A DNA stretch of 36,886 nt from Simkania sp. (GTDB taxonomy: Bacteria > Chlamydiota > Chlamydiia > Chlamydiales > Simkaniaceae): the NCBI GenBank assembly GCA_028281425.1, contig JANQJX010000244.1:1-36886 (forward strand). The letters run 5' to 3'. The notes beneath the pieces were generated by a model, which had not been told where the DNA came from, made no database searches, and was given only the letters and a program-made list of their open reading frames with translations. This document shows, in pieces, positions 1,570 to 34,830 of this stretch; position 1 is the first letter of the stretch; the number at the start of each line of letters is the position of its first letter. A program made the translations under genes and the position numbers.

Positions 1570-1742
1570 TACTCACCCGTATTTTACGCGACCCCTGAAA
1601 AAAGGCATGCTTGAGTGTTTTTCGAAAAGCCAAGAAATTTTCGAATGGATAAGTTTGCAACCTCACCTAAAAGAATTTATTGGAGGTATCGGAAAACAGA
1701 GCATGTGGATTTTTCTAAAATGGGTATGTGAAATAGAAGCTA
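1570..1742 (+). mobile_element. MITE family A, full copy (173 bp)
   Basis: Left end TACTCACCCGTATTTTACGCG. Core CAAGAAATTTTCGAATGGATAAGTTTGCAACCTCACCTAAAAGAATTTATTGG...GCATGTGGATTTTTC. Right end GGGTATGTGAAATAGAAGCTA. Collinear with the other A copies listed; TA at both flanks. Confidence 0.75.
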
Positions 1743-2429
1743 GCCTATTATTGAGCTATTCAAAAAATTAGAAACCCACGATTCAATAGGATTAAAATTC
1801 CTCCTTCCTTATGCGCTCAATTAAATTTGATCAAGAGGAGATGATAGTTCATGAACAAGAAAGTAAGAAGTCATAGATGCTATAGAAAATTTATGGATCT
1901 CAAAAAATCTATCATCGATTTTTTTGATAACATTTCTTTTTTTTAAAAATGAATTAAAATGCCTACTTACTCAAAGTCTTCAACATTATCAAACAAAAAA
2001 TCTAAATTAGGATGAACATGTTAAAAATCAAAATAAATCTCTATCTAAAAATAAAAATTAAACTTGATTTTTATCTAAATTTTTCCTCAAAATGCTTTTA
2101 TCTTTTTATACCAGTCATGTTTGAAAAATCTTTTTAACAAATGGGATTGCTCAACAGTGAGATTTTTTGGGAAGGAATTTTCTCTTTTATCGCAAATATG
2201 TTTTAAGCTAAGTTGACGCCATCAAATGAAATTCGCTGATTTAAGCTCAAAATACATTTGTATAAAAGAGGAAGTGGCATTTTCATCGAAGCGGTTCCAT
2301 AATCTTTCAACAAAGGCTATGTAAACGGAGGTAAAAATGACCTCTTTTCCAAATGGAAAAAAGATTTTTCACTCTCGATTGATATGAGACATAGAATTCA
2401 TAAACTCTTAAAAAAGGAAAATAAATTTT

Positions 2430-3443
2430 ATGTTAAAATTTCTTTTAAAAAAGAGCTTTTTTTTCTTTCTTCTCTTTCCATTTTTTTTCTCAGATCTTTT
2501 TTCTTATGCTTATGAAAATCAAATCGAATGGCAAAAAGGGTCTCAAACAAGTCGAAGAAAAAATTTAAGTGACGCCATCAAAGAAGGAGATATAACCAGT
2601 GCTAAAGCCTTAATTCTCTATTTGGAAAATATCAACGCCCCTTTATTTGATCAAAATGAAATGACCCCTCTTATGGAGGCTGCTTATTATGCTCAAATTG
2701 AACTTGTGAAATTATTGCATCATTTAGGCGCAGATATAGAAGCTTGTGACCGAAATGGATATACCGCTCTTTCTCACGCCTCATGTTATGCAAAAAATGC
2801 AGATCCAAATAGTGCTAAAATCGTTGTTGATTTCCTTATTCAAGCAGGTGCTGATATCGAATCTTCAGGATATAACAATGAAACTCCCCTTATTCGCTGC
2901 TGTTACAAAGAAAGATATGCATCTATTGCTAAATTTTTAATCGACTCAGATGCAAACATCGAAGCAATCAATAACTGTGGGAAAACACCTCTTATGATCG
3001 GAGCAATGCATGAAAATATCACAATTGTCAAGCATCTCTTAGAAGCAGGGAGTCAAGTTGAAACAAAAGATATCGACGGAAGAACAGCTTTAACACTTGC
3101 TGCAATGTTTAATCAAAATACCCAAGTCTTAACTCTTCTTAAAGCCTTTAATGCCAATTTTAATACGCTTGATCTTTCTGGAAAAACCACTCTTATCAAT
3201 GCACTTCATCAAAATAAAAATATCTTTGTCATTAAGTTTTTAATCGAATCTGGGGCCAAAACTGAAACTCCTGTATCTGAAATTATAAAAGAAGTAGACC
3301 CCCTAGAAACGATGAACAAAAATTTGGATAACCAAAACAAAGATCTCAATGATCATCATTCTATTCCAAGTGAAGAAATGACATTTGAAGAAACAGTTCA
3401 AAACATAAAAAAAGACTCTATTTCAGAAGAAGAAAAAAGCTGA
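2430..3443 (+). CDS. Secreted ankyrin-repeat protein (about 7 ANK repeats) with low-complexity acidic C-terminus
   Basis: Hydrophobic N-terminal signal-like segment (FFFFLLFPFFFSDLFSYA). Repeated ANK consensus follows: MTPLMEAAYYAQIELVKLLHHLGADIEACDRNGYTAL, NETPLIRCC..IAKFLIDSDANIE, GKTPLMIGAMHENITIVKHLLEAGSQVETKDIDGRTALTLAA. Confidence 0.85.
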   Translation: MLKFLLKKSFFFFLLFPFFFSDLFSYAYENQIEWQKGSQTSRRKNLSDAIKEGDITSAKALILYLENINAPLFDQNEMTPLMEAAYYAQIELVKLLHHLGADIEACDRNGYTALSHASCYAKNADPNSAKIVVDFLIQAGADIESSGYNNETPLIRCCYKERYASIAKFLIDSDANIEAINNCGKTPLMIGAMHENITIVKHLLEAGSQVETKDIDGRTALTLAAMFNQNTQVLTLLKAFNANFNTLDLSGKTTLINALHQNKNIFVIKFLIESGAKTETPVSEIIKEVDPLETMNKNLDNQNKDLNDHHSIPSEEMTFEETVQNIKKDSISEEEKS

Positions 3444-3465
3444 AATAAAATTTAAAAAACAAACA

Positions 3466-4974
3466 ATGGTAAGCAAAAAGAGCGTGATATTCTGCTCTGA
3501 AAATGAGGTTATTATGCTAAAACTAAAAGATCCAACTCTTTTAAAAACTCAAAGTTATATCAATGGAAACTGGGTAAGTGGAACCCAAAGCTTTAAAGTT
3601 TACAATCCTTTTGATGGAACGCTTGTAGCCGAAGTGACAGAAGTTAGCAAAAAAGAGACCATAAAAGCCATTGAAATGGCGCAAAATGCTTTCATCTCTT
3701 GGAAAAACCTTACAGCCGAGGAAAGAGGGAGCTATCTTTTAAAATGGGAAAAACTCATTCATAAACATTGGGATGATATCGCCACAATTTTAACTCATGA
3801 AGTGGGAAAACCCTACGAACAATCGGTCCATGAGCTCATGGGGAATGTAGGTTTTTTGAATTGGTATGCTCAAGAAGGCAAGCGTCTCCATGGACATACT
3901 CTCCAATCTCCTGACCCAAATCGTCGCTTCATGACGATCAGACAACCTCTCGGAGTCTTAGGACTGATTACTCCTTGGAACTTTCCTTCTGTTCTTGTAG
4001 TGCAAAAATGTGCTCCTGCACTTGCCTCTGGATGTACCATGGTTTTAAAACCAGCAGAAGATACCCCTCTTTCTGCTCTTGCTCTTGCAGAACTTGCTCA
4101 TCGAGCCGGTTTTCCTCCAGGTGTCTTTAATGTTCTGCCTTGTCTTGACCCAACAGAAGTAGGAACAATTTTAACTTCCCATTCTCTTATTCGTAAAGTC
4201 AGCTTTACAGGATCGACCTATGTAGGAAAAAAGCTGATGAGCGCAGCAGGTAAAGGAATCAAAAATATTTGCATGGAACTTGGAGGCAATTGCCCTGCAA
4301 TCATTTTTGAAGATGCTCAATTAAACCGCGCTGTTGAAAGCACTTTTTGGTTTAAATTTTATAATGCAGGCCAATGTTGCAATAATATCAATCGCTTTCT
4401 AGTCCAGGAGAGTGTCTATGAGACTTTTGCACAAAAATTTCAAGCCATGATCGATAAACACCTTAAAATGGGCTCTGGTATGGACCCCTCTAACAACCTC
4501 GGTCCTCTTATCAATGAGCAAGGCATTGCTAAAGTAGAAGAACTTATTCAAGATGCCCTTCAAAAAGGAGCAACTCTTCGATGTGGTGGCTCTCGATCAA
4601 ATATGGGCCCCCTTTTTTATAACCCTACCATTTTAACCAATGGAAATCAAAATATGCGCCTATACCGAGAAGAAATTTTTGGGCCAGTTGCTGCAATGTA
4701 TCCTTTTAAAACAGAAGAAGAAGCCATTCAAATGGCAAATGATACTCAATATGGACTAGGAGCCTATTTCTTTACTGAAAATATAGGAAGAAGCTTTAGA
4801 GTTTCTGAAGCACTCGAAGCAGGCTCTGTTGGAATGAATACAACCGATGTCTGTTCAGAACTCCTTCCCTTTGGGGGATGGAAAGAATCGGGCATTGGAC
4901 GGGAAAATTCAGCCCTTGAAAGCCTCAATGATTACTGCGAAATCAAGTCGGTTATTTTTGGAGGCATTCACTGA
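3466..4974 (+). CDS. gabD: NAD(P)+-dependent succinate-semialdehyde dehydrogenase (aldehyde dehydrogenase family)
   Basis: Aligns from recall along its length with GabD. Matching segments: INGNWV, ITPWNFPsvlvvqKcAPALAsGCTMVLKPAedTPlSALALAELAhRAGfPpGVFNV, Glu motif MELGGNCP, and catalytic Cys region FYNAGQCCNNINRFLVQ. The likely true start is the internal ATG at 3514 (MLKLKDPTLL...). Confidence 0.85.
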   Translation: MVSKKSVIFCSENEVIMLKLKDPTLLKTQSYINGNWVSGTQSFKVYNPFDGTLVAEVTEVSKKETIKAIEMAQNAFISWKNLTAEERGSYLLKWEKLIHKHWDDIATILTHEVGKPYEQSVHELMGNVGFLNWYAQEGKRLHGHTLQSPDPNRRFMTIRQPLGVLGLITPWNFPSVLVVQKCAPALASGCTMVLKPAEDTPLSALALAELAHRAGFPPGVFNVLPCLDPTEVGTILTSHSLIRKVSFTGSTYVGKKLMSAAGKGIKNICMELGGNCPAIIFEDAQLNRAVESTFWFKFYNAGQCCNNINRFLVQESVYETFAQKFQAMIDKHLKMGSGMDPSNNLGPLINEQGIAKVEELIQDALQKGATLRCGGSRSNMGPLFYNPTILTNGNQNMRLYREEIFGPVAAMYPFKTEEEAIQMANDTQYGLGAYFFTENIGRSFRVSEALEAGSVGMNTTDVCSELLPFGGWKESGIGRENSALESLNDYCEIKSVIFGGIH

Positions 4975-5005
4975 GCTTTTAAAATCAGATCAAGAAAAGA
5001 GAAAA

Positions 5006-5091
5006 TGCGAAAGGGGGGACTTGAACCCCCAAGGGATTTTACTCCCACTACCACCTCAAGGTAGCGTGTCTGCCAGTTCCACCACTTCCGC
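5006..5091 (-). tRNA. tRNA-Leu (anticodon GAG), long variable arm
   Basis: Reverse complement is GCGGAAGTGGTGGAACTGGCAGACACGCTACCTTGAGGTGGTAGTGGGAGTAAAATCCCTTGGGGGTTCAAGTCCCCCCTTTCGCA. It has anticodon stem CTACC/GGTAG with loop TTGAGGT, a class II variable arm, and T-arm GGGGG-TTCAAGT-CCCCC. Confidence 0.9.
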
Positions 5092-5144
5092 AAAAGGGAA
5101 AAACATTGTATGATATCTATAAGTAAGTATCCAAGCAAGAGGTT

Positions 5145-5357
5145 TTGTACGTGAAAAAGGTTTTAATTTTTTTAGTAAGGCTTTATCAATTTCTCATCCG
5201 CCCCCTGTTGGGACAGTGCTGCCGCTTTTATCCCTCATGCTCTGATTATGCTCTTTGTGCAATCAAGAAATATGGGTCCTTTAAAGGAATTTATTTAACT
5301 CTAAAACGCCTTTGTAAATGTCATCCTTGGCATCCAGGAGGCATCGACTTTCCTTAA
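5145..5357 (+). CDS. yidD: Membrane protein insertion efficiency factor YidD
   Basis: Hallmark motif [12 protein letters not shown]...[12 protein letters not shown]. The track start is TTG at 5145. GTG at 5151 has better spacing to the AGAGG at 5137-5141. The TAA stop (5355-5357) is also the first 3 nt of a family-A MITE. Confidence 0.85.
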
Positions 5358-5700
5358 ACCCCTATCTCTCATTCCCCCTATGGAAAAAGAGTTGCACAAC
5401 TGTTTTCAGAAACGCCAAGAAATTCTCGAATGGATAAGTTTGCAACCTAACCTAAAGGGCCTGCCTTGAAATGGAAAGTCATTGTCTAAAGGATCTTTTC
5501 TCCTTAGGCCTTAAGATAAGTCGCATCTCCTTTTGCTCTCAAGAGTCTAATGCATTTGCACCTTTCACAATTTTCGAAAAAAATCTCAAGGGATCCGAAC
5601 AATTTTTCAGTTCAAGGCAGGCTCCTAAAAGAATTTATCGGATGTGTGAGCGAAACAGAGCATGTGGATTTTTCAGAAAGGGAAAGCGAAATGCGAGCTA
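5355..5700 (+). mobile_element. MITE family A copy interrupted by a nested family-B MITE
   Basis: A-left runs 5355-5456 (...GCCAAGAAATTCTCGAATGGATAAGTTTGCAACCTAACCTAAA). A-right runs 5625-5700 (CTAAAAGAATTTATCGGATGTGTGAGCGAAACAGAGCATGTGGATTTTTC...GCGAAATGCGAGCTA). Removing B and one CTAAA leaves 173 bp, matching uninterrupted copies. Confidence 0.8.
5457..5624 (+). mobile_element. MITE family B copy (168 bp) nested in family A
   Basis: Termini are GGGCCTGCCTTGAA...TTCAAGGCAGGCTC, flanked by the direct repeat CTAAA (5452-5456 and 5625-5629). Collinear with the B copies at 15908, 20643 and 23162. Confidence 0.8.
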
Positions 5701-5706
5701 AAATCC

Positions 5707-6870: not shown

Positions 6871-6985
6871 GATCCTTTGAAAATAACAAAAAAATCACCA
6901 CCCGCCAATAGAAAAAAACAAAAGTTTTCTTTCTTCAATCGATAAAATCTGTTAAAATCGCTCAAAAATATGACCCCCTACATGT

Positions 6986-10503: not shown

Positions 10504-10933
10504 GTTTCCAAAGAAAGTAGTCAAAGCTGCTTAAAACACCCTTGAGTTTGACAAGGGAATAGTCACCCTCAACAAATCGTCTTATTGCTTCTAATGTGCT
10601 AAGGGAGAGGTGTCTCCAGATAGGGTTTATTTTAAAATAAGCATAAAATCGGAGAAATCACCTACTTTTCGATGAACTTCTTGATCCATCGACTTATTTC
10701 GTTTTTATAACATAATTTTTGCTTCAGATCGCAATAGGCCTACATTTTAAGAATTCGCCTGAACCTGTAGATTTTTATCTCTTACAAAGCCTTTAAAGCT
10801 TAACAATTTATCATCATCTTGAACAAGATCGACTGTGAAAACCTTTGATAAAGAGCATGCTTTTTGCATATGAATAAAATAGGTGGTCAAAAGGATACTA
10901 TCACCTCCTTTATGGAGAAGTTACTGCAAAAAA

Positions 10934-11035
10934 GGATTTTCCAGTTCAAGGCAGGCCCTTAAAAGAGCTATTTTGGAATATTCGAGATAACAGATATTTC
11001 ACACTTTCAAAGATGACTTTTGAGACATAAGGGTT
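10934..11035 (+). repeat. Degenerate remnant: 25-nt family-B terminus fused to a decayed family-A right half
   Basis: GGATTTTCCAGTTCAAGGCAGGCCC (10934-10958) matches a B terminus. It is followed by TTAAAAGAGCTATTTTGG...GAGACATAAGGGTTA, which parallels A (CTAAAAGAATTTATTGG...GCGAAATGCGGGTTA). Confidence 0.5.
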
Positions 11036-11157
11036 AAAGATTGGATTCCAAATCAAAAGAGGAAAAAAATGGCAGCAAGATAATAGGTATAGAAGTTTTA
11101 TTTTAAAAGACTTAAGAGAGGAAGGTCTAAATCGCCTTATCACCTGTGTGAGGGAAA

Positions 11158-11334: not shown

Positions 11335-11432
11335 CTAAAAGGAATGCCTTAAACTAAAAAACTTTTCGGATCAACTGAGATTTTTTTAAAAGTGGTAAGA
11401 TAGGGGCTAGGGAATACTCATGGATTTAAATT

Positions 11433-12539: not shown

Positions 12540-12563
12540 TATACCCTGTATTTTTACGCAAAC
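12540..12563 (+). repeat. Solo family-A left-TIR-like sequence
   Basis: TATACCCTGTATTTTTACGCAAAC resembles the A left TIR (TAGCCCTTATTTTACGCCACC). It lies 42 bp upstream of the full copy at 12582. Confidence 0.4.
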
Positions 12564-12581
12564 TGTAAGAAAAACATGGAC

Positions 12582-12754
12582 TAGCCCTTATTTTACGCCA
12601 CCTCTTTCGAAAAGGCACACACGATTGTTTTTTGAGGCCTAAGAAATTTTCGAATGGATAAGGGTGCAGCTTCACCTAAAAGAATTTATTAGATGTACCA
12701 GCGAAAAAAAGCATGTGGATTTTTCTAAAGTGGGCACGAGAAATGGGGGCCATA
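12582..12754 (+). mobile_element. MITE family A, full copy (173 bp)
   Basis: TAGCCCTTATTTTACGCCACCTCTTTCGAAAAGGCA...CTAAGAAATTTTCGAATGGATAAGGGTGCAGCTTCACCTAAAAGAATTTATTAG...GCATGTGGATTTTTCTAAAGTGGGCACGAGAAATGGGGGCCATA. It lies in the divergent trhO/rpsD spacer. Confidence 0.8.
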
Positions 12755-12868
12755 GCGCAAGCAAGTGATAAACTTAGGCTACGCAACAGACTTTACCCTT
12801 GAGCTAAATGAATCATTTAAATTAAGATAGCAAGTTGAACCTTTTAGGGTGAATTTTAAGGAGATAGA

Positions 12869-14429: not shown

Positions 14430-15804
14430 AACTCTTTTTGAAGCAAATGAAGAGGCTATAGAAAACAAAATTGTAACCGTATCTGGTTGGGTACGCACAG
14501 TTCGAAAGAAAAAATCTTTTACATTTATCGAAGTCAATGACGGTTCCTACTTCGAAAATTTGCAGGTGATTGCAGATCATAAGCTGAAAGATTATGAAAG
14601 CATGATCTCTTCTCTTTCAACGGGTGCTTCCCTTTCTATTACTGGAACAATTGCAAAAAGCTTAGGAAAAGGGCAAAAAATTGAGCTCCATGCTGAAAAA
14701 GTGACTCTCTATGGCTTTTGTCCAAACGATTACCCTCTCCAAAAAAAAAGACACTCCTTTGAATTTTTGCGTACTATTGCCCATCTGCGTCCTCGCACCA
14801 ACACGCAAGGAGCTGTAGCTCGCGTACGGAGTCGTCTAACCTACGCAGTTCATAAATTTTTTCAAGAACGGGGCTTTATCCATCTCCAATCCCCAATCAT
14901 TACAGGTTCGGATTGTGAAGGAGCAGGAGAACTTTTTCAAGTCACAACTCTCAACTTAGAAAACCTTCCCCGCAAAGAAGGTAAAATTGACTACAACCAA
15001 GATTTTTTTTCCAAAGAGGCTTATTTGAGTGTTTCTGGACAACTCAATGGAGAAGCCTATGCTCTTGCTTTATCAGATATTTATACCTTTGGCCCCACAT
15101 TTCGCGCTGAAAACTCTCATACGTCTAGACACCTCGCTGAATTTTGGATGATTGAACCCGAAATGGCCTTTACCGATTTAGATGGGATTTGTCTTCTTGC
15201 TCAAGAGTTTCTTACCACCCTCATTCAAGAAGCACTCACCCATTGCTTAAAAGACTTAGAATTTTTTAACCAATTTATTGAAAAAGGACTTATCGAAAGG
15301 CTCGAACATGTCATCAAAACTCCTTTTATTCGCCTTCCCTATTCAGAAGCCATTACGCTTCTTAAAAAATCACAAAGAAAATTCGAATATCCTGTCGAAT
15401 GGGGTCTTGACTTGCAATCAGAACATGAACGTTATCTCAGTGAAGAACATTTTAAAAAACCCTTGATTTTGACCGATTACCCTAAAGAAATTAAAGCCTT
15501 TTATATGCGTGACAATGAAGATGGAAAAACAGTTGCTGCTCTAGATGTTCTTGTTCCAAAAATTGGAGAAATTATTGGGGGAAGTCAAAGAGAAGAACGC
15601 TTGGATATTTTAAAAAGTAAAATTGAAAAGAAAGGACTCAATCCAAATGATTATAAGTGGTATCTTGATCTTAGAAAATTTGCCACAACACCTCATGGAG
15701 GATTTGGGCTCGGATTTGAACGTTTTGTGCAATTTATTACCGGAATTGAAAATATCCGGGATGTTATCCCTTTCCCTAGAATCCCTAATCAATGCGACTT
15801 TTAA
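14362..15804 (+). CDS. asnS: Asparagine--tRNA ligase
   Basis: OB anticodon-binding N-terminus ([25 protein letters not shown]). Class II motifs are present ([41 protein letters not shown]). The start is uncertain: the track ATG at 14362 overlaps nfo by 68 nt, and ATG at 14383 fits N-terminal length better. The TAA stop (15802-15804) is the first 3 nt of a family-A MITE. Confidence 0.9.
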
Positions 15805-16141
15805 CTCACATTTCTCACCAACTCTTTCGAAAAGGCATGCACGAATATTTTTTGAGACGCCAATAAATCTTCAAAGGAAAGGTTGCAACCTTTCCGAGAT
15901 AATTTATGGGCCTGCCTTGAACTGGAAAGTCATCGTCTAAAGGATCTGTTCTCCTTAGGCTTGACATCAGTCGCATCTCCTTTTGCTCTCAAGGGTATAG
16001 TGAATTTGCACCTTTCACAATTTTCGAAAAAAATCTCAATGAATCGGAACAATTTTTCAGTTCAAGGCAGGCCCTTTATTGAGTGTCTGGAAAAACAGGA
16101 GATACGGATTTTTCTAAAGTGGGCACGCGAAATGTGGGTTA
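15802..16141 (+). mobile_element. MITE family A copy interrupted by a nested family-B MITE
   Basis: TAACTCACATTTCTCACCAACTCTTTCGAAAAGGCATGC...GGTTGCAACCTTTCCGAGATAATTTAT[B]TTTATTGAGTG...GGATTTTTCTAAAGTGGGCACGCGAAATGTGGGTTA. TTAA lies at both flanks. The element fills essentially the whole spacer between the convergent stops of asnS and the 16147 ORF. Confidence 0.85.
15908..16074 (+). mobile_element. MITE family B, reference copy (167 bp)
   Basis: Perfect 17-bp TIR GGGCCTGCCTTGAACTG / CAGTTCAAGGCAGGCCC. A perfect 5-bp direct repeat TTTAT flanks it (15903-15907 and 16075-16079). Confidence 0.9.
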
Positions 16142-16146
16142 ACATG

Positions 16147-18644: not shown

Positions 18645-19692
18645 TCAGAGGTTTAAAGAACCTTTTCTAGAAAGCCATTGGATGACAAGATCACGTGTTG
18701 CATGAGCACAAGCAACAAAAATATGCCCTTTATCAAAAATAGAGCGCAAAACCTCTTCCTTCAGGCGGAAGATCTAGAGCTCTCAGGCGCCTTTTTGCTG
18801 CTGCTTAATGGACTCCACGCAAAGTAGCGATGCATGCTTAACTCTCCAAAGTGCTGTTAAAGCACTAGGGAATCCTCTTCGTTTAGGGAGAGGAGGATGT
18901 CAATGGGAATCATAGCCATTTGTTCTTCTTTGTCACTGATGAGAACAGATTCACGAGGGATAAGCCAATCGTTTTCCGCAACAATCGTATAGAGTTGAAC
19001 GAGATCGCGATTTTTTTTGATACGTTCATAAATAAGCTCAATTCTCTTTAAAGTTTCATAGCAATAAGGGTAAAAAGGAGTTTCTATAGGCTTATCAATA
19101 TTTTTAAGACGTCCCGCAATGGAAATGACCTTGTCAACCGTCCTATTTTCAATCCATTTCTCTTGATCAAACGCATCATCAGCAGCAATAATAGTTCCAA
19201 GAGAGTGCCCTACGAGATTTAAGTAGGAGAGTTTCTGCTCCTGCTTCAAGATACATCTCTCGAATAGACCTAATTCTTTTGATAAGCGCTGTGACGCCCT
19301 CTCCTTCTTGGAAGTTGAAAGTGAAAACAGGGCCACAAAGGTCACCAAAATTTTCATCTTCCATAGAGTGAAGGAGAGGAAGCCATTCACCCTGGTTAGA
19401 TTGACTGGAATGAATAAGAATTGGTAGCAGGACATTTGGATTGGCATTTAGACACCCAAGATGGATTGCATCCGTAATAAAAAAAATCCTTTTTAGGTCC
19501 CCATAGATAGCGATCCCATAAAAACTGACTGAGCACATTTATCGAGAGAGCATCAATCTCTTCTTTTCCTCGTTCAAAAACACTGTTAGAACTTTCCTGT
19601 ATCTCCATACAAGAAGGTTGCGGAAAACGTTCCTTAGAAAAAAGAATAAGGGGGAGAAGAAATAGAAGAAAAAAAACACTTATGCATTTCAT
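18645..19692 (-). pseudogene. Secreted alpha/beta-hydrolase (lipase/esterase-like) pseudogene: at least 2 frameshifts plus a 167-bp element insertion
   Basis: Three overlapping track ORFs in three frames (19396-19692, 19179-19538, 18857-19447) jointly encode a signal peptide (MKCISVFFLLFLLPLILFS), PILIHSSQSNQGEW, nucleophile elbow LVGHSLGT and an acid-residue region AENDWLIP. A fourth piece (18645-18734) encodes DKGHIFVACAHATRDLVIQWLSRKGSLNL*, which carries the expected GH. Confidence 0.7.
18735..18901 (+). mobile_element. Miniature IS200/IS605-like element (PATE-like, 167 bp) inserted in the hydrolase gene
   Basis: The first ~57 nt are near-identical to 36682-36738. It is inserted 3' of TTATC with no target duplication. 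Subterminal hairpins lie at 18754-18772 (TCTTCC/GGAAGA) and 18873-18894 (TCCTCT/AGAGGA), plus AGTGCT-GTTAA-AGCACT at 18850-18866. In-silico excision joins ...ATGGCTATGATTCCCATT|GATAAAGGGCAT... in frame. Boundaries are ambiguous by 2 nt. Confidence 0.55.
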
Positions 19693-19787: not shown

Positions 19788-20655
19788 ATGAGGTTCATGA
19801 TGTTTCGAATGATTTCTATGACCCTTCTTTTTCTCAATCCTTTCCTTTTTTCCAGTGACTCTCTAGTCAAGCAGCTCAAAGTGCGCCAATATGCCATTGT
19901 TCCTATTGAAACAAAGACAGAATGGTTTGATGAAGCTATTCAAGCATACGACAGCTTCTTAAAGCTCCCTGAAGAAGTGAAAAAAAAATATATGGCACAG
20001 TTTTTCCTTTGCACTCCCGCTCTAATTGCGGATATCGATTAGAAACTCACAATCACGGGAAAAACCTTAGAATGTACTTTCTATATCACCCCAAGCTCGA
20101 GTCTCAATGTCAATCATTTATAAAAGAAAACGCATCGATACGTTCTCTTTTCGAAAAAACCAAACCTCTATGGCAAACTTCAAATAGCTGTTTTAAAAAA
20201 GTCATTCATGAACTTAGCGCCTCTTTTCCTCCAAATGCCTATGATTCTATCTTTGCAAAAGATTCACATCAAGTACGCCTTGTTCTTGCTTTGATTAAGT
20301 ATTCCGATAAAGAAGAAAGAAAGCGATCAATAAGCCATTTTGACGGCGGATGTGCTAGCCTTGCGCTATTAGAAAGTGCTCCTGGCCTTCGAATTGGAAG
20401 CTGCGAAAAAACTCTATCTGATGCTGCTCATTGTAGAGGAACTGCTATTTTTTTCTCGGGAAAAACTTTAAGTCAATCGTTGGAGAAAGAAGTGGGATTC
20501 TTCCTGGTTGGCATGATGTCAGGCCTGGCTTAGGAAATAGATTTGCAATTATCGCCTTTCTCGATACACTCCATTCTAAAGGCGTCACAGAGGAAGAAAC
20601 TCATGAAAATCCCCTCAATATGGAACTTCGAAGTCCAATAAAGGGCCTGCCTTGA
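19788..20655 (+). pseudogene. 2-oxoglutarate/Fe(II)-dependent oxygenase-like pseudogene (2 frameshifts; 3' end runs into a family-B MITE)
   Basis: Frame 1 (19788-20042) encodes ...WFDEAIQAYDSFLKLPEEVKKKY. Frame 2 (20009-20533) encodes ...ISHFDGGCASLALLESAPGLRIG...AIFFSGKTLS, containing an HxD motif. Frame 3 (about 20495-20655) encodes GILPGWHDVRPGLGNRFAIIAFL, containing the distal His and an RxA/S motif. The terminal TGA (20653-20655) lies inside the B TIR. Confidence 0.55.
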
Positions 20656-20809
20656 ATTGAAAAATTGTTCCGATCCATTGAGATTTTTTTCGAAAATTGT
20701 GAAAGGTGCAAATTCACTATACCCTTGAGAGCAAAAGGAGATGCGACTGATATCAAGCCTAAGGAGAAAAGATCCTTTAGACGATGACTTTCCAGTTCAA
20801 GGCAGGCCC
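20643..20809 (-). mobile_element. MITE family B copy (167 bp), inverted relative to the 15908 copy
   Basis: GGGCCTGCCTTGAATTGAAAAATTGTTCCGATCCATTGAG...GACTTTCCAGTTCAAGGCAGGCCC. There is no flanking direct repeat (left ATAAA, right ATTTG). Confidence 0.85.
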
Positions 20810-20900
20810 ATTTGCAACCTCACCTAAAAGAATTTATTGGATGTCCCAATGAAACAGCGCCTGTGGATTTTTCTAGATTGGGCATGCGAAATGCGGGTTA
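20810..20900 (+). mobile_element. MITE family A, right half only
   Basis: ATTTGCAACCTCACCTAAAAGAATTTATTGGATGTCCCAATGAAACAGCGCCTGTGGATTTTTCTAGATTGGGCATGCGAAATGCGGGTTA. The left half is missing and the sequence abuts the B copy directly. Confidence 0.75.
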
Positions 20901-21073
20901 GCTCCATCAGCACATGGATGCCTAAGGGCATAAGAGCATGGACTAAAAACGGGTTCATTCTTAAGCTACTTTTATTGATTTTTGGACATGTTAGTCAAAT
21001 ACTTAATAAAAGTCAGTTAACACATCATCCATTTTTTAGAATTGACACATCTATTTTGCTTTCTCCCTTCACT

Positions 21074-21808: not shown

Positions 21809-22117
21809 TAGAGGAGACTCTCTCTGAATGCCACCTATGTTGAAAAGGACTTCCTTAAACTGAAAAATTGTTCCGATCCATTGAGATTTTTTTCGAAAAT
21901 TGTGAAATGTAGGGCTTTCTCAAACCTAAAGAGAAAAGATCCTTTAGATGAGGATTCTCCAGTTCAAGACAATTCCTGAAAGGCATGCTTGAGTGTTTTT
22001 TGAGGCCTAAGAAATTTTCGAAGGAAAGGTGGTAAACTTGGGCTAAAAGAATTTATTGGGGGTGCCAGCGAAACAGAACATGCGGATTTTTCATAGGGGC
22101 AGGCGACATGCGGGTTA
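21809..22117 (+). mobile_element. MITE family A copy (degenerate left end) carrying a degenerate nested family-B copy
   Basis: ...CTGAATGCCACCTATGTTGAAAA[B]CTGAAAGGCATGCTTGAGTGTTTTTTGAGGCCTAAGAAATTTTCGAAGGAAAGGTGGTAAACTTGGGCTAAAAGAATTTATTGGG...GCGGATTTTTCATAGGGGCAGGCGACATGCGGGTTA. The last 3 nt (22115-22117) are the rluD stop codon on the reverse strand. The left boundary is approximate. Confidence 0.65.
21847..21975 (-). mobile_element. MITE family B, degenerate copy with internal deletion (about 129 bp)
   Basis: GGACTTCCTTAAACTGAAAAATTGTTCCGATCCATTGAGATTTTTTTCGAAAATTGTGAAA...CCTAAAGAGAAAAGATCCTTTAGATGAGGATTCTCCAGTTCAAGACAATTC. The TIRs are mutated and about 40 bp of core are replaced. Confidence 0.6.
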
Positions 22118-23056
22118 GGTGATATCCTCAATGTGAGTAAAAAATTTTTTCAAGCAATGAGAAAAATCGCAAGGAAAAGGAGCTGTCAGATGGAGAGGAG
22201 TCTTTTTCACTGGATGTATAAGGAAGATCTTCCATGCATGAAGCATTTGTCGAGAGATTTGAAATTTATCGTTAATTTGAGAAAATCCGTAGAGGGAATC
22301 GCCTAAAATAGGGGCATTTTGAGACCTAAGATGGACTCGGATTTGATGGGTACGCCCTGTGATAAGTTTTGCTTTTATCAAAGAGAAATAGGCCGTTTTT
22401 TGAAGGAGAAAAATTTCTGTGATAGCTTCTTTTCCTCCTTCTTTTAAGAGACTCATTTGTTCTCTTTTTCTAGGATTTCTTCCAATGGGAACATTAATGA
22501 TAGAAACATTTGGATTTCCAACTGTTATTGCTAGGTAGGTTTTTTCGATCTTTCTTGAACTGAACTGTTCAATTAAATTTTGATAGGCTTCATATGTTTT
22601 TGCCCCAACTAATATTCCTGAAGTCTCTTTGTCTAAACGATGAACTATTCCAGGACGAGACGCAAGACCTGGCAATTGATTTTGACTACAATGAAAAGCA
22701 AGAGCATTTGCAAAGGTTTGACTTGGATGTCCTGGAGCAGGATAGACAACCATCCCCGCTGGTTTATTCACACAGATTAAATCTTCATCTTCATAGAGGA
22801 TTTCAAGAGGAATAGCCTGGGGTATGAGGTCTAATAATTGAGGAAAGGTAAAAATAACTTCAATCCTATCATTTTTTTTAATAAAATGCCCTTTTTTGAC
22901 AATATTCCCATTGATACGAACATTTTTTTTCTCGATGAGACGTTGAAAATAAGAACGAGAATAATTGGAAAAGCGCTTTGAGAGACATGTATCTAAACGC
23001 TCTTTTCCTTCTTGCTCAAAATGAAAAACATCTTTCAACAACTCATTTTCCATCAC
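22115..23056 (-). CDS. rluD: 23S rRNA pseudouridine synthase, RluA family (RluD subfamily, N-terminal S4 domain)
   Basis: S4-like N-terminus (RSYFQRLIEKKNVRINGNIVKKGHFIKKNDRIEV). Catalytic motif GIVHRLDKETSGILV. Also TGRTHQIRVHL. Confidence 0.8.
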   Translation of the reverse strand: MMENELLKDVFHFEQEGKERLDTCLSKRFSNYSRSYFQRLIEKKNVRINGNIVKKGHFIKKNDRIEVIFTFPQLLDLIPQAIPLEILYEDEDLICVNKPAGMVVYPAPGHPSQTFANALAFHCSQNQLPGLASRPGIVHRLDKETSGILVGAKTYEAYQNLIEQFSSRKIEKTYLAITVGNPNVSIINVPIGRNPRKREQMSLLKEGGKEAITEIFLLQKTAYFSLIKAKLITGRTHQIRVHLRSQNAPILGDSLYGFSQINDKFQISRQMLHAWKIFLIHPVKKTPLHLTAPFPCDFSHCLKKFFTHIEDIT

Positions 23057-23161
23057 GTTCCAAAAATAGGTGACTATTTTTTAAAATCATATCCATGATA
23101 CCAAAAACCCACAAATTCTTGCTCACCTTTTCACTTCAACTGAAATTCTATCTTATTGAAA

Positions 23162-23329
23162 GGGCCTGCTTTGAACTGGAAAGTCCTCGTCTAAAGGATC
23201 TTTTCCCCTTAGGGTTGACATCCAGTCGCATCTCCTTTTGCTCCCAAGGGTATAGTGAATTTGCACCTTTCACAATTTTCGAAAAAAATCTCAATAGATC
23301 CAAACAATTTTTTAATTCAAAGCAGGTTC
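23162..23329 (+). mobile_element. MITE family B copy (168 bp)
   Basis: GGGCCTGCTTTGAACTGGAAAGTC...CAATTTTTTAATTCAAAGCAGGTTC, flanked by the direct repeat TGAAA (23157-23161 and 23330-23334). Confidence 0.8.
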
Positions 23330-23361: not shown

Positions 23362-23492
23362 CTTCAAATGCCCCTTCTTTCGAAAAGCCAAGAAATTCCC
23401 GAATGGATAAGTTTGCAACCTTATTCTAAAAGAATTTATTGGATGTATCGGAAGTCAAGGAGCATATGGATTTTTAATGAGTGATATCGGGA
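23362..23492 (+). mobile_element. MITE family A, partial/rearranged copy
   Basis: ...ATGCCCCTTCTTTCGAAAAGCCAAGAAATTCCCGAATGGATAAGTTTGCAACCTTATTCTAAAAGAATTTATTGGATGTATCGG...GCATATGGATTTTTAATGAGTGATATCGGGAT. A second A-left-TIR-like stretch (ACCCACAAATTCTTGCTCACC) sits at about 23107-23127. Boundaries are approximate. Confidence 0.55.
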
Positions 23493-27170: not shown

Positions 27171-27264
27171 CTCCCTTAAATTTTCAAACGATTAAATATG
27201 CTATTTTGAGAAAAACCTAAATTTTATTCATCGGAAAAATGATTTTCAAGTATATTTAACCTTA

Positions 27265-27438
27265 TGACCCCTGTTTCACATGTCTGCTCTTTCGAAAAAA
27301 GACACAGACTGTTTTCGGAAATGCCAAGAAATTTTCTTAGGCAGAAGTTTATGACCTTATCCTCGAGAATGTATTGGATGCATCTGGAAATAGAGCCTGT
27401 GGATTTTTCTAGAATAGGCACGCAAACTACGGGGTAAG
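27265..27438 (+). mobile_element. MITE family A, diverged full-length copy (174 bp)
   Basis: TATGACCCCTGTTTCACATGTCTGCTCTTTCGAAAAAAGACA...GCCAAGAAATTTTCTTAGGCAGAAGTTTATGACCTTATCCTCGAGAATGTATTGGATG...CTGTGGATTTTTCTAGAATAGGCACGCAAACTACGGGGTA. Confidence 0.7.
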
Positions 27439-27652
27439 CTTCATTTTATCAACATTAAAACTAATGCGAATTTAACATGAAGCACTCTATCAGAAAACCA
27501 GAATTTTCGATGAGATTTTAAGAAAAATAGATGGAAGGAAATCATCAAAGCGCCATTTTTAAGCCAATTTTTTTGGGAAAATCGCAAAAAGAGCGCCTTT
27601 TTTAGACATCTTTTTATAGAGATTAAGGAAACATTCAACAAGGAAGCCTTCA

Positions 27653-31231: not shown

Positions 31232-31270
31232 CTTCAAAGCGAGTTTAACATCCACTTTCTTATAGAGCGC

Positions 31271-32398
31271 TTATGTTAAATTTGCCTTAACTTTAAAAAG
31301 CAACTTTTCTTCTTTCTCTGATATTTCTAAAAGAGAAAAAGCTTCTCTTAAAATCTGGTCTGGAGAAAGTCTCTCTAAACAATCACTTTTAAAGCTTCCT
31401 CCACAACCACTTTGATAACAGGGACGACAAGAAAAATCTCCTTTGACAATACGCGCCTTCTTATTTTGATACGGACTCCAATTGACTTCACATGTAGGAC
31501 CAAAAATAGCAACAGTCTTTTTCTTCAAAGCACTTGCAAGATGTATGGGTAGAGAATCTATAGAAATCAGCAACTTACTCATTGCAATAAGAGCTCCAAA
31601 TTCTTTGAGACTCATCTGACCTGACAAATCAATCGTTCCCGGAGCAAGTGCTCTAATCTTTCGATTCATCTCCATTTCTTCTGGATCTGAGCTTGCAGTT
31701 AAAACAACAACCTCTTTTCTTTTTTGTAAACATCGAATCACCTGAACGACTGTTTCAATGGGAAGTGTTTTAAACATCCATCTCGATACGGGATGGACTT
31801 GCACAAACCGATAAGGAGAGACCCCTTTTTCAAGTAAGAGGCTTTCTATCTTTTTTTTACTCTCTTCTGGAATATGAAAGAAAAGGGACCTCTCCTCAAC
31901 CTTAGGATAAATTCCAAGGCACCGAAGCGCATCAAGGTGTTTTTCAACTGTATGGCGAGGCTTGGGGGTATGTTTAATGATGTGAGTATAACACTTTTTT
32001 TTCCCAAACATTCCTTTTTTTTCTGGATCAAACCCAATGCTGTAAAGAGCTTTAGAAAACCTGCAAGCAAGGGCCCCACGGTCCCCCTCTGTTAAATTGA
32101 TCACAAGATCATATTTTCTCTTTCTAATTGTTTTGAGCAACTTGACTTCATAAAAGAGTCGAGATACCAAGGGAAGTTTTTTCCATTTACGGTCATATAA
32201 AAGAAACTGAGAAATTGCAAAATGCCCTTCTAATAAAGGAAGGGTTTCTTTGTAGAGATACGCATCGATTTCAAGATGGGGATAGGAAGTTTTTAAAATA
32301 GAAAAGAGAGGAGAAGATAGCAAAACATCGCCATGATGACGAAGTTTGGCAACAAGGACACGTTTGAGTCTATTAAAATCAACCGGCTTTTGTCTCAT
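31271..32398 (-). CDS. Glycosyltransferase family 9 (LPS heptosyltransferase-like)
   Basis: N-terminus RVLVAKLRHHGDVLLSSPLFSILKTSYPHLEIDAYL. C-terminal motif LLISIDSLPIHLASAL (consensus GnDSGpmHLAAA). Followed by AIFGPT. Confidence 0.8.
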   Translation of the reverse strand: MRQKPVDFNRLKRVLVAKLRHHGDVLLSSPLFSILKTSYPHLEIDAYLYKETLPLLEGHFAISQFLLYDRKWKKLPLVSRLFYEVKLLKTIRKRKYDLVINLTEGDRGALACRFSKALYSIGFDPEKKGMFGKKKCYTHIIKHTPKPRHTVEKHLDALRCLGIYPKVEERSLFFHIPEESKKKIESLLLEKGVSPYRFVQVHPVSRWMFKTLPIETVVQVIRCLQKRKEVVVLTASSDPEEMEMNRKIRALAPGTIDLSGQMSLKEFGALIAMSKLLISIDSLPIHLASALKKKTVAIFGPTCEVNWSPYQNKKARIVKGDFSCRPCYQSGCGGSFKSDCLERLSPDQILREAFSLLEISEKEEKLLFKVKANLT

Positions 32399-32524
32399 GC
32401 TCCAAAGTTTAACATGAAAATAGAGAAAATAAGGAGAAATTTATTCACACATCTTAAGAAAAACGAGAGATAAACAGTGTGAGAGATTTTGAAAACTGCT
32501 TTTTATTTTGCAGAATGATGAAAC

Positions 32525-33250
32525 TTAAGTTTCAAAGCGATATAAATACTTATTCCAAAGATCCATATCCATTTCTTTGACCATCGCATCTAATTCTAGT
32601 AAAATTCTTTGTGGGCTTTGTTTTGAATAATATAAGATGTCTTTTCCTTTGGATTTTGATTCATGCTGCTGATGGTAGGATTCTAGAATTCTCATCCGAT
32701 AGGCATCCATATGATTCATATAGTCACTTAAACCTCTCTCTTCTTCTCCCAAAAATTTCAAAATCCCTTTTAAAGTTTTTTTAGGAAAAAGCAAGATGTC
32801 TTCATAATACACCAGCAGGCGTCGAGAAGGATCCCAATCATCAAAAAACCGAAACATTTTTAAATAGTAATTGAGATATTGAAAAGCAAAATCTCGAATT
32901 TTCTCTTTTTTTCCGTGCCCTCTTCTTCCAAAATTTCGAAGAAAAATTTCTTTAGGGTTACGAGTCAAAAAAATCAATCGATTTTTAGCGGATGAGATCC
33001 CTTTTAAAGCACTATAATGATGGATACGCAGAAGAGGTTTTTTAGAAAAATCTAAATCGATCAAAAGGAGATTTTCATCTCGACTACTCTTTTCCATCCC
33101 TTCTTGATACACAAATAAACAGGGAATTTTGGCAATGATTTGAAGGGAGCTTATTGTTAAATTTGTTCCTGATCTTGGTGTTGATAATAAAAAAATCTGA
33201 TCCTGCACAAGATGGGGCGGTTCAATCAAAACAAAAGAAGATGCTTCCAA
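32525..33250 (-). CDS. PAPS-dependent sulfotransferase-domain protein
   Basis: 5'-PSB-like loop LLSTPRSGTNL and 3'-PB-like region RLIFLTRNPKEIFLR. Mid-region LLVYYEDILLFPKKTLKGILKFLG is typical of sulfotransferases. The track start is TTG. An upstream ATG (33279) is out of frame by one T in a T9 run. Confidence 0.7.
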   Translation of the reverse strand: MEASSFVLIEPPHLVQDQIFLLSTPRSGTNLTISSLQIIAKIPCLFVYQEGMEKSSRDENLLLIDLDFSKKPLLRIHHYSALKGISSAKNRLIFLTRNPKEIFLRNFGRRGHGKKEKIRDFAFQYLNYYLKMFRFFDDWDPSRRLLVYYEDILLFPKKTLKGILKFLGEEERGLSDYMNHMDAYRMRILESYHQQHESKSKGKDILYYSKQSPQRILLELDAMVKEMDMDLWNKYLYRFET

Positions 33251-33350
33251 AAAAGAGAAACAAAAAAAAACAATTTCATGACATGATGAAGATGGCTTCT
33301 ATTTCGCATACCAGCCCTAAAATAAGAGATGTACGATGTTTTTAGAAACA

Positions 33351-33405
33351 CCCATAAAGTTTCCTTGGGTAAGGTTTGAGAGCTTACCCAAGGAAACTTA
33401 TGGGG
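33351..33405. terminator. Long near-perfect hairpin (about 22-bp stem, 8-nt loop)
   Basis: CCCATAAAGTTTCCTTGGGTAAG-gtttgaga-CTTACCCAAGGAAACTTATGGGG has one bulge. It lies 37 nt downstream of the stop of the 33442-33699 (-) ORF and upstream of the sulfotransferase start. T-tracts are only weak on either strand. Confidence 0.4.
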
Positions 33406-33441
33406 TGCAGAGGTTAGATCTATTTTTTTCTATGATGTTCC

Positions 33442-33699
33442 TTACGGATCCATTTCTTGTTGTCTTCTTTCTTGCCTCTCTAACCTCAAAATTCCTTCGC
33501 GTCGCACTCGCATTGCTTTTTCCATTCTTATGATCTCTCTTCTTTCATCTTCATCTAAATCTTCTGTTTCATCAATAAAATAATTCTCTATTTCATCTTC
33601 AAACTGATCTTCAGAATAAAGCTTTCCAATATTAAAAAAAGAAAAGCAAACAAACAAAAAAAAGGAGAAAACTTGAATATTAAAAAATCTTAAATTCAT
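33442..33699 (-). CDS. Small secreted hypothetical protein (85 aa), acidic then basic
   Basis: Signal-like N-terminus (FFNIQVFSFFLFVCFSFFNIG). An acidic stretch follows (EDQFEDEIENYFIDETEDLDEDE), then Arg/Glu-rich helical sequence. No homology evidence. Confidence 0.4.
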   Translation of the reverse strand: MNLRFFNIQVFSFFLFVCFSFFNIGKLYSEDQFEDEIENYFIDETEDLDEDERREIIRMEKAMRVRREGILRLERQERRQQEMDP

Positions 33700-33991
33700 A
33701 ATTTCACCTTTAACAAAAACGATACGTTTGACTTAAAGATGGTCCTCGAGTCAAAACCTTTTGAGTAGAATTTTTTATTTTTAGCAAAAAAAAATCCCAT
33801 TTCTACAACTATAACACAATGCTTGAATTTTTATTTTAAAATATCGAAAGAAGTGGTTTTTCAATGAGACTCTAAAAAAAATGAACGTAAGAAAATATAC
33901 CGGTTATAATCTTCCAATTATGATTTAAGCGTACTCTTTGTTTGGTGGTTTCAAGTGTCTAGCGCGACAACTCTTTAAAAAAAGATCACTT

Positions 33992-34535
33992 TCAATCATA
34001 ACCGATACATCTATTCCTGCTATATTGGCTTAAATATTTATTGTGGATATCAGGAAAACAGTTTTTTACATACTGGTCAATGGATTCTACTTCTAATCTT
34101 GAGAGGTTTTTGGCATGACATTTAAGATCCCTTCCCTTTGATTGAGAACCTCCAAACCTCGGTTGTGAATCATAATCTAAAGAGCATTTTTTATGATACT
34201 CAAAATCCCGCATAAATTCTTTTAAAGAATTGGCGTTCTCTTTTAGGAAAAGAAGGACTTTTTTCATAGTGCTTTCAAAATCATTTATCAGATCTTCATA
34301 GTAGATTAAAAGCCTATTTAATTCCTTTAAAGGATTCATGAATATCAGAGCTAGAGTTGTTCAAATGATTCCAAATATTATTAAAATTACAATAGTGCCT
34401 AGAAAAGCATTCAATATCATCCCGAACGATCAAAATCAACTTTTCTTGGTTTTTACATGGCTTATCACAACAAAGTATATCATTTGCTCTATGTCTATGA
34501 TCAAATTCCTTATCAGAAGATAGTATCACTATCAT
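33992..34535 (-). pseudogene. Sulfotransferase paralog, frameshifted and 5'-degraded
   Basis: ORF 34314-34535 contains KLILIVRDDIECFSRH (compare RLIFLTRNPKEIFLR). ORF 33992-34339 contains RLLIYYEDLINDFESTMKKVLLFLKE...SQSKGRDL...NKYLSQY, collinear with the C-terminal half of the 32525 gene. They are in different frames. Only a degenerate PSB-like remnant lies upstream (to about 34620). Confidence 0.6.
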
Positions 34536-34661
34536 TTACAAAACTATTGCAAGTTCAACAGTCCTTGCCGTTAAACTCGCGCTTTGCTACCAAAACTAAC
34601 CATCTTTCCAGATTGTTCTTTTTTATTAAACTTTTTTAAATACCAAATTGAAAACCGCTCT

Positions 34662-34830
34662 TAGCCTGCATTTTACGCCACCTCTGGAAAAAGAGCTGCA
34701 CGAATGTTTTCAGAAACGCCAAGAAATTCTCAAATGGATAAACTTGCAACCTCACCTAAAAGAATTTATTGGATGTGCAAGCGAAACAGAGCATGCAGAT
34801 TTTTTCAGGGGTAGCGTAAAATACGGGTTA
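34662..34830 (+). mobile_element. MITE family A, best-preserved copy (169 bp)
   Basis: TIR alignment: TAGCCTGCATTTTACGCCACCTCTGG against the reverse complement of the right end, TAACCCGTATTTTACGCTACCCCTGA, gives 20/26 identical. The core is collinear with other copies. Confidence 0.85.

Follow-up and report, generated by a model that had tools for sequence, protein, structure and literature searches.

Bacterial MITEs of the IS630/Tc1-mariner type, such as the Nezha-type elements of cyanobacteria, are small, non-coding, multicopy and intergenic, carry terminal inverted repeats (TIRs) and TA flanks in a Y-TA-R context, and depend on a transposase supplied in trans. Other short repeats, namely the Neisseria Correia elements (CREE/NEMIS), ERIC and RUP, measure ~100–170 bp, have TIRs and a TA target duplication, lie near gene ends and form a long hairpin. 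To our knowledge, a single orientation per contig has not been described for the former, nor has uniform orientation been reported for the latter. Two reports (PMC3971601; PMC5027513) describe for IS200/IS605 elements and their derivatives (PATEs, REP/REPIN with RAYT) a strongly polarized chromosomal orientation tied to single-stranded fork DNA, and orientation biases linked to replication are on record for numerous IS families, among them IS630 in certain chromosomes (PMC3971601). The statement in an earlier note on the DNA studied here, that a TIR/TA element has no intrinsic reason for orientation bias, is therefore too strong.

We analysed one whole contig of a Simkaniaceae (Chlamydiota) MAG, 36,886 nucleotides in length (the window). 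Descriptions of intergenic DNA rich in repeats are scarce for environmental chlamydiae; in this contig, the spacers between essential genes contain two or three MITE families, one nested within another. The TIR element of ~170 bp that had been noticed to recur through the window is indeed present, as a ~175-bp repeat (family A) with TA-flanked TIRs and an imperfect hairpin fold along its whole length. With an nhmmer profile built from the full copies, we located ten robust copies, seven full-length and three partial. The seven previously called full-length are so, although a second MITE of ~167 bp (family B) splits each of those at 5355, 15802 and 21809. Copies of both families, together with two weaker matches, are as follows.

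1571-1746, + strand: A1, full-length, in the spacer between a recO-like gene (+) and an ankyrin gene (+); 165 bits on + versus 41 on -; hairpin fold
5355-5700 (nhmmer 5354-5458 and 5622-5704), + strand: A2, full-length, split by family B; its left TA is that of the yidD stop codon TAA (5355-5357)
5457-5624, + strand: family B in A2, CTAAA on both sides
10959-11038, + strand: possible very decayed right half of A, adjoining a family B end
12541-12580, + strand: partial A (model positions 1-42), head-to-tail with A3; borderline
12581-12755 (nhmmer from 12580), + strand: A3, full-length, in the divergent rhodanese (-)/rpsD (+) spacer; 164 bits
15802-16141 (nhmmer 15800-15910 and 16074-16145), + strand: A4, full-length, split by family B; its left TA is that of the asnS stop codon and its right TA is separated by 5 nt from the stop codon of a convergent DUF8173 gene
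15908-16074, + strand: family B in A4, flanked by TTTAT
20643-20812, - strand: family B left of A5
20811-20903, + strand: A5, right half of A, with family B abutting on the left; 81.5 bits on + versus 14.5 on -
21809-22117 (nhmmer 21816-21851 and 21969-22120), + strand: A6, full-length, with a shortened family B near its left end; its right TA and the minus-strand stop codon of rluD (22115-22117) overlap
21846-21973, - strand: shortened family B in A6, flanked by TGAAA
23162-23329, + strand: family B left of A7
23376-23483, + strand: A7, central part (model positions 49-153), between rluD (-) and khpA (+), just right of family B 23162-23329; 71.5 bits on + versus 16 on -
27263-27440, + strand: A8, full-length, in the tRNA-Arg (-)/kdsA (+) spacer; 147 bits
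33291-33431, + strand: A9, degenerate (model positions 4-120); 39 bits on + versus 22 on -, local alignment score 63 on + versus 29 on -
34660-34834, + strand: A10, full-length, with the best-preserved hairpin (DNA fold -28.5 kcal/mol, z = -3.75); 158 bits on + versus 48 on -

The count of ten given in the earlier note thus stands, although its membership changes: the degenerate copy at 33291-33431 had been missed, and the partial copy claimed at 10959 is not separable from chance (local score 21, below the null 95th percentile of 24). What had been called a solo TIR at 12540 is a borderline match (score 27; null 95th percentile 24, null maximum 30) that adjoins, head-to-tail, the full copy starting at 12581. 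Such head-to-tail pairs of a partial and a full copy occur twice, at 12541-12755 in the window and at 5287-5565 on a second contig, L111, described below.

Family A begins and ends as TA-RCCCGYATTTYRCGC...GCGYRAAATRCGGGT-TA, and full-length copies measure 173–178 bp. The TA reported at both flanks is present at 8/8 right ends and ~6/8 left ends, and almost every copy has flanking bases that give Y-TA-R, a target resembling that of IS630. A TA duplication may have accompanied insertion, or TA may belong to the ends themselves; a clean empty site was sought in the closest relative, whose orthologous spacers all hold B-like or family C repeats or fail to align on one side. Complementarity had been described as confined to TIRs of ~25 bp, but arm pairing extends beyond the ends over the entire element and is preserved in 88% of pair cells across copies, and the inner stem is bordered by an A-run and a T-run. 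Stops break all six reading frames in most copies, and the core motif has zero expected chance matches. All copies in the window are intergenic, the terminal TA falling on the stop codons of yidD, asnS and rluD. As the sequences flanking different copies share no similarity, the copies are discrete units rather than parts of larger segmental duplications. On the grounds of both structure (TIRs with TA ends, a whole-length hairpin, broken frames) and placement (dispersed intergenic copies with unrelated flanks, terminal TA on stop codons, Y-TA-R around it), it is well supported that family A is an ordinary TA-targeting MITE: a discrete TIR element with TA flanks and no coding capacity. As such, it is ordinary biology in an unusual host.

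Family A copies have become preferred landing sites for family B, the younger MITE. We also considered whether A6 had been flipped by inversion between two inverted B copies around rluD. This was rejected because the B copy at 21846-21973 is bordered by TGAAA on both sides and forms a coherent insertion within A6.

The closest relative shares ~80% nucleotide identity with the window over a fully syntenic region, and gene order is colinear with its 759-kb contig (ENA ERZ26858540, ctg224429) over ~5–33 kb, except for a 1-kb inversion at rluD. Family A was not found in 36 kb of this fully syntenic DNA or in two further Simkaniaceae loci, and it has no counterpart in any syntenic spacer of the relatives' loci L100 and L110. 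The left boundary of A8 is precisely where homology to the relative breaks off (blastn/alignment breakpoint 27264), and the spacer orthologous to that of A3 keeps both flanks with other repeats inside. When GTDB species genomes, JGI/ENA metagenome contigs and IMG/VR were scanned with degenerate patterns, nothing but isolated chance matches emerged, none of which was upheld by nhmmer, including two in Chlamydiae MAGs; blastn of an A copy against PLSDB plasmids gave no match. Judged from its absence from the relative's syntenic region and from the public collections scanned, family A is lineage-specific. The pairwise JC distance between copies is 0.43, versus 0.78 at fourfold sites between the two genomes.

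All ten robust copies lie on the + strand (two-sided binomial p ~0.002, before selection, the window having been flagged for its orientation). Each copy scores far higher on + than on -, as for A1 and A10, and the weaker minus-strand matches arise solely because family A is a near-palindrome. The uniform orientation that had been reported despite genes on both strands is therefore real in the window. Gene contexts are mixed (3 convergent, 4 divergent, 2 co-directional, 1 anti-directional), and orientation is independent of neighbouring transcription. Translated A peptides, used as queries in a word-indexed search of proteins, yielded a single match (P0121), to which an exhaustive search added P0243 and P0244, the last of these leading to L111. 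The three are encoded on sibling contigs of 18,832 (P0243), 6,866 (P0244) and 5,008 bp (P0121). This is a second contig of the same organism from the same sample, in which a sibling contig is 100% identical to the window. L111 carries three copies of family A, at two independent sites, all on the same strand. Contig-scale co-orientation (10/10 in the window, 3/3 on L111) is thus a real property of the two contigs on which the orientation evidence is based. Identity between A copies is 52–81%, and the most alike are not neighbours: A2 and A10, the most similar pair (81%), are far apart, and an A8-like subfamily is present on both contigs, which speaks against simple stepwise local spread.

The absence of an autonomous partner from the window, as previously stated, was borne out by Pfam searches on all sizeable open reading frames, which found no transposase. 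No transposase with TIRs matching family A was found in the window or the relative, an observation that counts against the explanation we favour below. The relative has the one IS630 remnant that came to light (L100 14055-14982); it is degenerate and was rejected as a partner, its TIR (TATAGCGTTTTAAATTTAAAATTTC) being unlike that of family A.

The explanation we prefer, with a probability of roughly 0.4 for its parts jointly, is that family A is an old lineage-specific MITE whose polarity was fixed at insertion and kept in short-range spread. The ~175-bp element would be an old non-autonomous TIR transposon, mobilized by a DDE transposase acting in trans and inserting at TA in a Y-TA-R context of the CTAG/TTAA type known from IS630/Tc1-mariner. 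Its targets would have been the very short intergenic spacers of the Simkaniaceae chromosome, in many cases the very position of a stop codon. Amplification would have followed the split from the nearest sequenced relative, after which copies would have decayed and later served as sites for the younger family B. Our best guess for the orientation is that polarity, once set at insertion, would be retained during dense short-range spread, such that each neighbourhood or physical strand inherits one polarity, rather than being imposed afterwards through selection for a role as RNA or in regulation. We know of no IS630-type mechanism that preserves donor polarity in local hops.

For the orientation itself, what remains is contig-scale co-orientation or chance. 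That an ordinary MITE with random insertion orientation came to lie 10/10 one way by luck is unlikely. The window was singled out because of its orientation pattern, L111 contributes only two independent sites, whose agreement has p = 0.5, and we know of no mechanism in an IS630-type element. Other MITE families are mixed (family B 3 + to 2 - in the window, family C ~1:3 in the relative), and the region therefore imposes no polarity on every repeat. On the other hand, the binomial value refers to ten independent insertions with unrelated flanks and from several subfamilies, the second contig is uniform as well, and the relative's B-like copies likewise favour one strand, 7 to 1.

A stronger form of co-orientation, that A copies are laid on one physical strand over large regions, maybe chromosome-wide and independently of genes and of leading or lagging status, is a speculative idea that we consider unlikely. 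If true, it would imply strand-tracking or single-strand (hairpin) mobilization of a TA-flanked TIR MITE, and A copies would provide Chlamydiota genomes with an intrinsic record of their strand history. We know of no description of such mobilization for IS630/Tc1-mariner-type elements. Genome-wide co-orientation independent of both transcription and replichore would amount to an undescribed constraint on TIR insertion or survival, and the copies could then be used for tracing strand history and rearrangements; should co-orientation fail genome-wide, family A would be one more lineage-specific MITE.

A rule tied to replication, in which insertion or survival of family A requires one set polarity with respect to the fork and the window belongs to one replichore, fits the window well. 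GC skew there has a single sign (third codon positions negative in 17/17 genes on + and 7/9 on -; -0.11 in repeat-free intergenic DNA), all three tRNA genes are on the - strand, and the relatives' syntenic loci carry the same skew sign. IS200/IS605 elements follow this pattern, as do several DDE IS families in a statistical sense. The replication-direction effect proposed in the earlier note nevertheless failed its first independent test: in L111, whose overall skew is +0.13 (third positions +0.15 to +0.43 in 5/5 genes), all three copies read on the G-rich strand, in contrast to the C-rich strand for those in the window. As to a correlation with replichore, polarity relative to skew is therefore opposite on the two contigs, although co-orientation persists within each. 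An inversion offers no rescue because it flips element and skew together, and a post-insertion re-equilibration of the skew on L111 was ruled out by divergence, as it is impossible within the ~0.2 substitutions per site that the copies have accumulated. A plasmid location of L111 was also rejected, its genes having no chlamydial plasmid matches. Over both contigs, 10 of the 12 independent copies read on the C-rich strand, which could suggest a merely partial bias; however, both exceptions fall on the one small contig, for which the chance is ~1 in 66. The present evidence argues against a simple leading/lagging-strand rule as what sets the polarity of family A, and we regard such a rule as improbable.

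Still less probable is a domesticated element, whose copies would be kept under selection for a role that works in one polarity, be it as a transcribed small RNA, in termination or insulation, or in protein binding. The retained hairpin, its double changes at eight pairs and the A- and T-runs bordering the inner stem could be read in this way, as could the slightly better fold of the + strand (7/7 full copies as DNA, 5/6 as RNA). However, Rfam at the gathering threshold returned only tRNAs and at E<1 nothing relevant on any A copy, and no consensus terminator or sigma-70-type promoter sites recur inside the copies. Orientation, moreover, is unrelated to the flanking genes. Mismatches in the arms are symmetric (G:T 36 versus A:C 43), and neither these nor the fold energies of the two strands show a convincing asymmetry, so that strand-specific hairpin selection was rejected. 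The covariation test that had been suggested for the copy alignment gave a weak signal, barely above shuffles (0.224 versus 0.191; 21/500 shuffles reach the observed score). The copies are moreover decaying (diverged, truncated and used as landing pads by family B), and the closest relative has the same genes without family A. The earlier suggestion of strand-specific selection on an RNA, terminator or insulator thus goes unsupported. Finally, although the window comes from a MAG, a kind of assembly in which repeats often cause breaks and false joins, an artefact of segmental duplication or faulty assembly is effectively refuted by the dissimilar flanks, the colinearity with the relative's contig and an independent Logan assembly that is 100% identical across a copy boundary.

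Among known systems, integron attC arrays and CALINs resemble family A as co-oriented imperfect palindromes of ~60–140 bp spaced ~1–7 kb apart, and the outermost bases of family A (..TTAAC / GTTAA..) faintly recall attC R''/R' boxes. This likeness is superficial: the DNA between A copies holds conserved syntenic housekeeping genes on both strands rather than cassettes, the window lacks an integrase, and the Rfam search gave no attC-type match. Elements of the IS200/IS605 type ('peel and paste') share hairpin-forming ends with family A, but have neither TIRs nor target duplications, and combine asymmetric ends with a tetra- or pentanucleotide target and a constant fork polarity. Identity with IS200/IS605, PATE or REP/RAYT elements was rejected, since family A has symmetric, TA-flanked TIRs without the GTAG/CGTC head of REPs and a polarity relative to GC skew that differs between the two contigs. 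With CREE/NEMIS, ERIC and RUP, family A has in common its intergenic position close to gene ends and its long hairpin fold, but it shares no sequence similarity with them and has no evident promoter, terminator or RNase III role. It is like the IS630/Tc1-mariner MITEs in being small, non-coding, multicopy and intergenic, with TIRs and Y-TA-R TA flanks, and differs from them in a complementarity that spans its whole length and in keeping one orientation per contig.

A search of the window with a profile made from the full-length family A copies bore out the one-way repeat family described in the earlier note: ten loci were found, all on the plus strand, with plus-strand scores of 39–165 bits. 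The far lower minus-strand scores arise solely because the element is near-palindromic. The quoted core sequence occurs three times in the window and its degenerate pattern seven times, with none expected by chance. Both ends are TA followed by RCCCGYATTTYRCGC, arm complementarity spans the entire unit to form a long imperfect hairpin, and the flanks of the copies are unrelated to each other. All copies are intergenic; seven are full length and three partial. The earlier copy list lacked the 33291 copy, its 10959 fragment is without significance and its solo TIR at 12541 is borderline. The copies at 5355, 15802 and 21809 are full length as stated, each split by family B.

Family A copies in the window from the profile search, with gene context
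1571, plus strand: A1, full length; co-directional
5355, plus strand: A2, full length, split by B; convergent; terminal TA in yidD stop codon TAA (5355–5357)
12581, plus strand: A3, full length; divergent
15802, plus strand: A4, full length, split by B; convergent; terminal TA in asnS stop codon TAA (15802–15804)
20811, plus strand: A5, partial; co-directional
21809, plus strand: A6, full length, split by B; convergent; terminal TA in rluD stop codon TAA (22115–22117, minus)
23376, plus strand: A7, partial; divergent
27263, plus strand: A8, full length; divergent
33291, plus strand: A9, partial; anti-directional
34660, plus strand: A10, full length; divergent

Exhaustive searching of the translated A10 open frame against protein representatives yielded three more A-derived ORFs. 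One such protein, P0244, was traced to L111, a 6,064-bp Logan contig of run SRR20820735, which very probably comes from the same genome as the window because the run yielded another contig with 100% identity to the window. Three A copies are present on L111, sharing one strand:
1–61: A copy at the contig start
~5287–5397: 3'-truncated A copy
~5399–5565: full A copy, head-to-tail with the truncated one (111 versus 23 bits)

The left TIR of an A copy on L111 contains, at 5300–5302 (CAT within GCATGC), the start codon called for a class IV aminotransferase gene; this start was either called wrongly or is provided by the element. In P0243, from an 18,832-bp NCBI contig, the A-derived ORF runs from an A copy into tRNA-gene antisense (..GFEPATNGLTVRCSTAEL..), so this copy adjoins a tRNA gene on the opposite strand; in the window, A2 and A8 are similarly close to tRNA genes of the minus strand.

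Family A is co-oriented within each of the two contigs, and this co-orientation is real. Insertion may have set the polarity in the course of dense local spread: there are 10 copies in 37 kb and 3 in 6 kb, with two head-to-tail arrangements. Plain chance is a rival explanation, under which 10/10 copies on one strand in the window has a two-sided p of ~0.002. That the polarity reflects something new is unlikely, with a probability of about 0.2. Not all repeats of the region take one polarity, since family B, a second MITE of ~167 bp with a 21-bp TIR (GGGCCTGCCTTGAACTGGAAA), is mixed in the window (3 plus, 2 minus):
5457–5624, plus strand: family B
15908–16074, plus strand: family B
23162–23329, plus strand: family B
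20643–20812, minus strand: family B
21846–21973, minus strand: family B
near 10912–10961 and 11345–11390: family B fragments

Direct repeats of 5 bp, rich in A/T (CTAAA, TTTAT, TGAAA), flank the B copies, which are 85–90% alike; B is therefore younger than A. With A accounting for only ~16% of intergenic DNA, the position of each full B copy inside or against an A copy suggests a target preference of B for A or for hairpin DNA. The closest relative is rich in B-like elements, at its loci L100 and L110:
L100 1955–2120, 7988–8143, 12927–13070: B-like
L110 5709–5868, 9516–9675, 13858–14024, 17564–17729, 19729–19893: B-like

As 7/8 full-length copies there share a strand, this 7:1 ratio hints that skewed orientation is perhaps not unique to A. 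Two spacers, one following the LysM gene and the other following asnS, hold a B copy in both genomes, in opposite orientations.

A partial replication bias is another rival: relative to skew, A polarity at independent sites is 10:2, both exceptions being on the small contig L111. A strict replication-strand rule, initially the leading hypothesis, has been weakened. Orientation bias linked to replication is widespread in IS families, and in some chromosomes extends to IS630 (PMC3971601). The window itself lies within a single replichore, and A reads there on the C-rich (lagging-polarity) strand, because plus-strand GC skew is negative at third codon positions (17/17 plus-strand and 7/9 minus-strand genes) and likewise in repeat-free intergenic DNA, 3/3 tRNAs are on the minus strand, and the relatives' syntenic loci have the same skew sign. 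On L111, however, the strand bearing the A reading is G-rich (overall skew +0.13; third-position skew +0.15 to +0.43 in 5/5 genes). Inversion is excluded as the cause, as skew and element flip together, and so is skew re-equilibration, for which ~0.2 substitutions per site are too little. The data therefore do not support a strict leading/lagging rule, and no single replication-strand polarity fits the orientation of A. The L111 genes had no chlamydial plasmid matches.

Orientation is also unrelated to neighbouring gene direction, given the mixed contexts counted with small genes included (3 convergent, 4 divergent, 2 co-directional, 1 anti-directional). A strand-specific function, the RNA or regulatory role earlier entertained, is the least supported rival and draws no support from the tests: arm mismatches are symmetric (G:T 36 versus A:C 43), plus-strand folds are just slightly better than minus-strand folds, covariation is weak (0.224 versus 0.191; equally high in 21/500 shuffles) and A has no Rfam match.

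The window spans a complete contig, 36,886 bp being the length on record for the contig of its proteins; it has a G+C of ~36% and carries recO-like, ankyrin-protein, aldehyde dehydrogenase, yidD, pheT, rpsD, nfo, asnS/lysS-type, hemA, rluD, khpA, kdsA and lptB genes, housekeeping genes included, and three tRNAs. Its organism is an uncultured member of the Simkaniaceae (Chlamydiota), because its S4 protein shares 86% identity with that of the relative (759-kb ENA contig) and 83% with that of Simkania negevensis. We compared it with the orthologous L100 and L110, covering 36 kb of the relative's contig and colinear with window ~5–33 kb at ~80% nucleotide identity, and with loci of two more distant Simkaniaceae, S. 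negevensis among them. Family A was absent from all of these, and scanning GTDB genomes, metagenomes, viral contigs and plasmids brought up no further copies. Homology with the relative ends precisely at the left end of A8, and in the rhodanese/rpsD spacer of A3 the two flanks are conserved and the middle differs. The relative's orthologous spacers offer no clean empty site because other repeats, B-like and family C, occupy them. A copies are 52–81% identical, the closest pairs not being neighbours, and they differ pairwise by JC 0.43, roughly half the 0.78 measured between the two genomes at 4-fold sites, which fits amplification after the split. Family A is thus a lineage-specific, old and decaying MITE.

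The rluD block (22137–23066), set between A6 at one end and B plus A7 at the other, is inverted relative to L110 4304–5232; its neighbours have third-position GC skew of the other sign from its own +0.14, suggesting a recent inversion in the lineage of the window. Diverged sulfotransferase-domain paralogues (32525–33250, 33992–34339 and 34984–36651; span 32525–36651) occupy the less conserved end of the window, and the relative has a similar cluster (L110 15187–19544). Further repeats were seen:
L100 9619–9778, 8355–8516, 17384–17544: family C, MITE-like, TIRs of form GGGGGTGYTGAAATCTAGATTTTTT, both orientations
window 2158–2276: family C, single weak copy
window 18729–18797 and 36676–36744: intergenic pair, 93% identical, unrelated to A or B, taking in the last 200 bases of the contig
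window 27504–27611 and L100 5931–6039: shared short repeat, 75% identity, unrelated to A or B
L100 14055–14982: degenerate IS630-family element, HTH_Tnp_IS630 N-terminus and DDE C-terminal fragment, middle deleted

The 25-bp TIRs of the relative's IS630 (TATAGCGTTTTAAATTTAAAATTTC) are unlike those of A, and may resemble the Neisseria Correia TIR (TATAGTGGATTAAATTTAAA...).

Family A is a discrete, TA-flanked, intergenic hairpin MITE. Its copies hold no usable reading frame, in line with the MITE reading of the earlier note, and no promoter or terminator consensus recurs in them; nor does the window encode a transposase, so an autonomous partner is indeed absent there. Excising A4 with one TA would leave the stop codons of two convergent genes 4 nt apart. 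The left TA is preceded by T or C and the right TA followed by A or G, which points to Y-TA-R as the probable target, and an IS630-type DDE transposase may have mobilised A at such sites. The family is new but belongs to a known class, the bacterial MITEs, and its target is presumably of the symmetric CTAG/TTAA type linked to IS630/Tc1-mariner elements.
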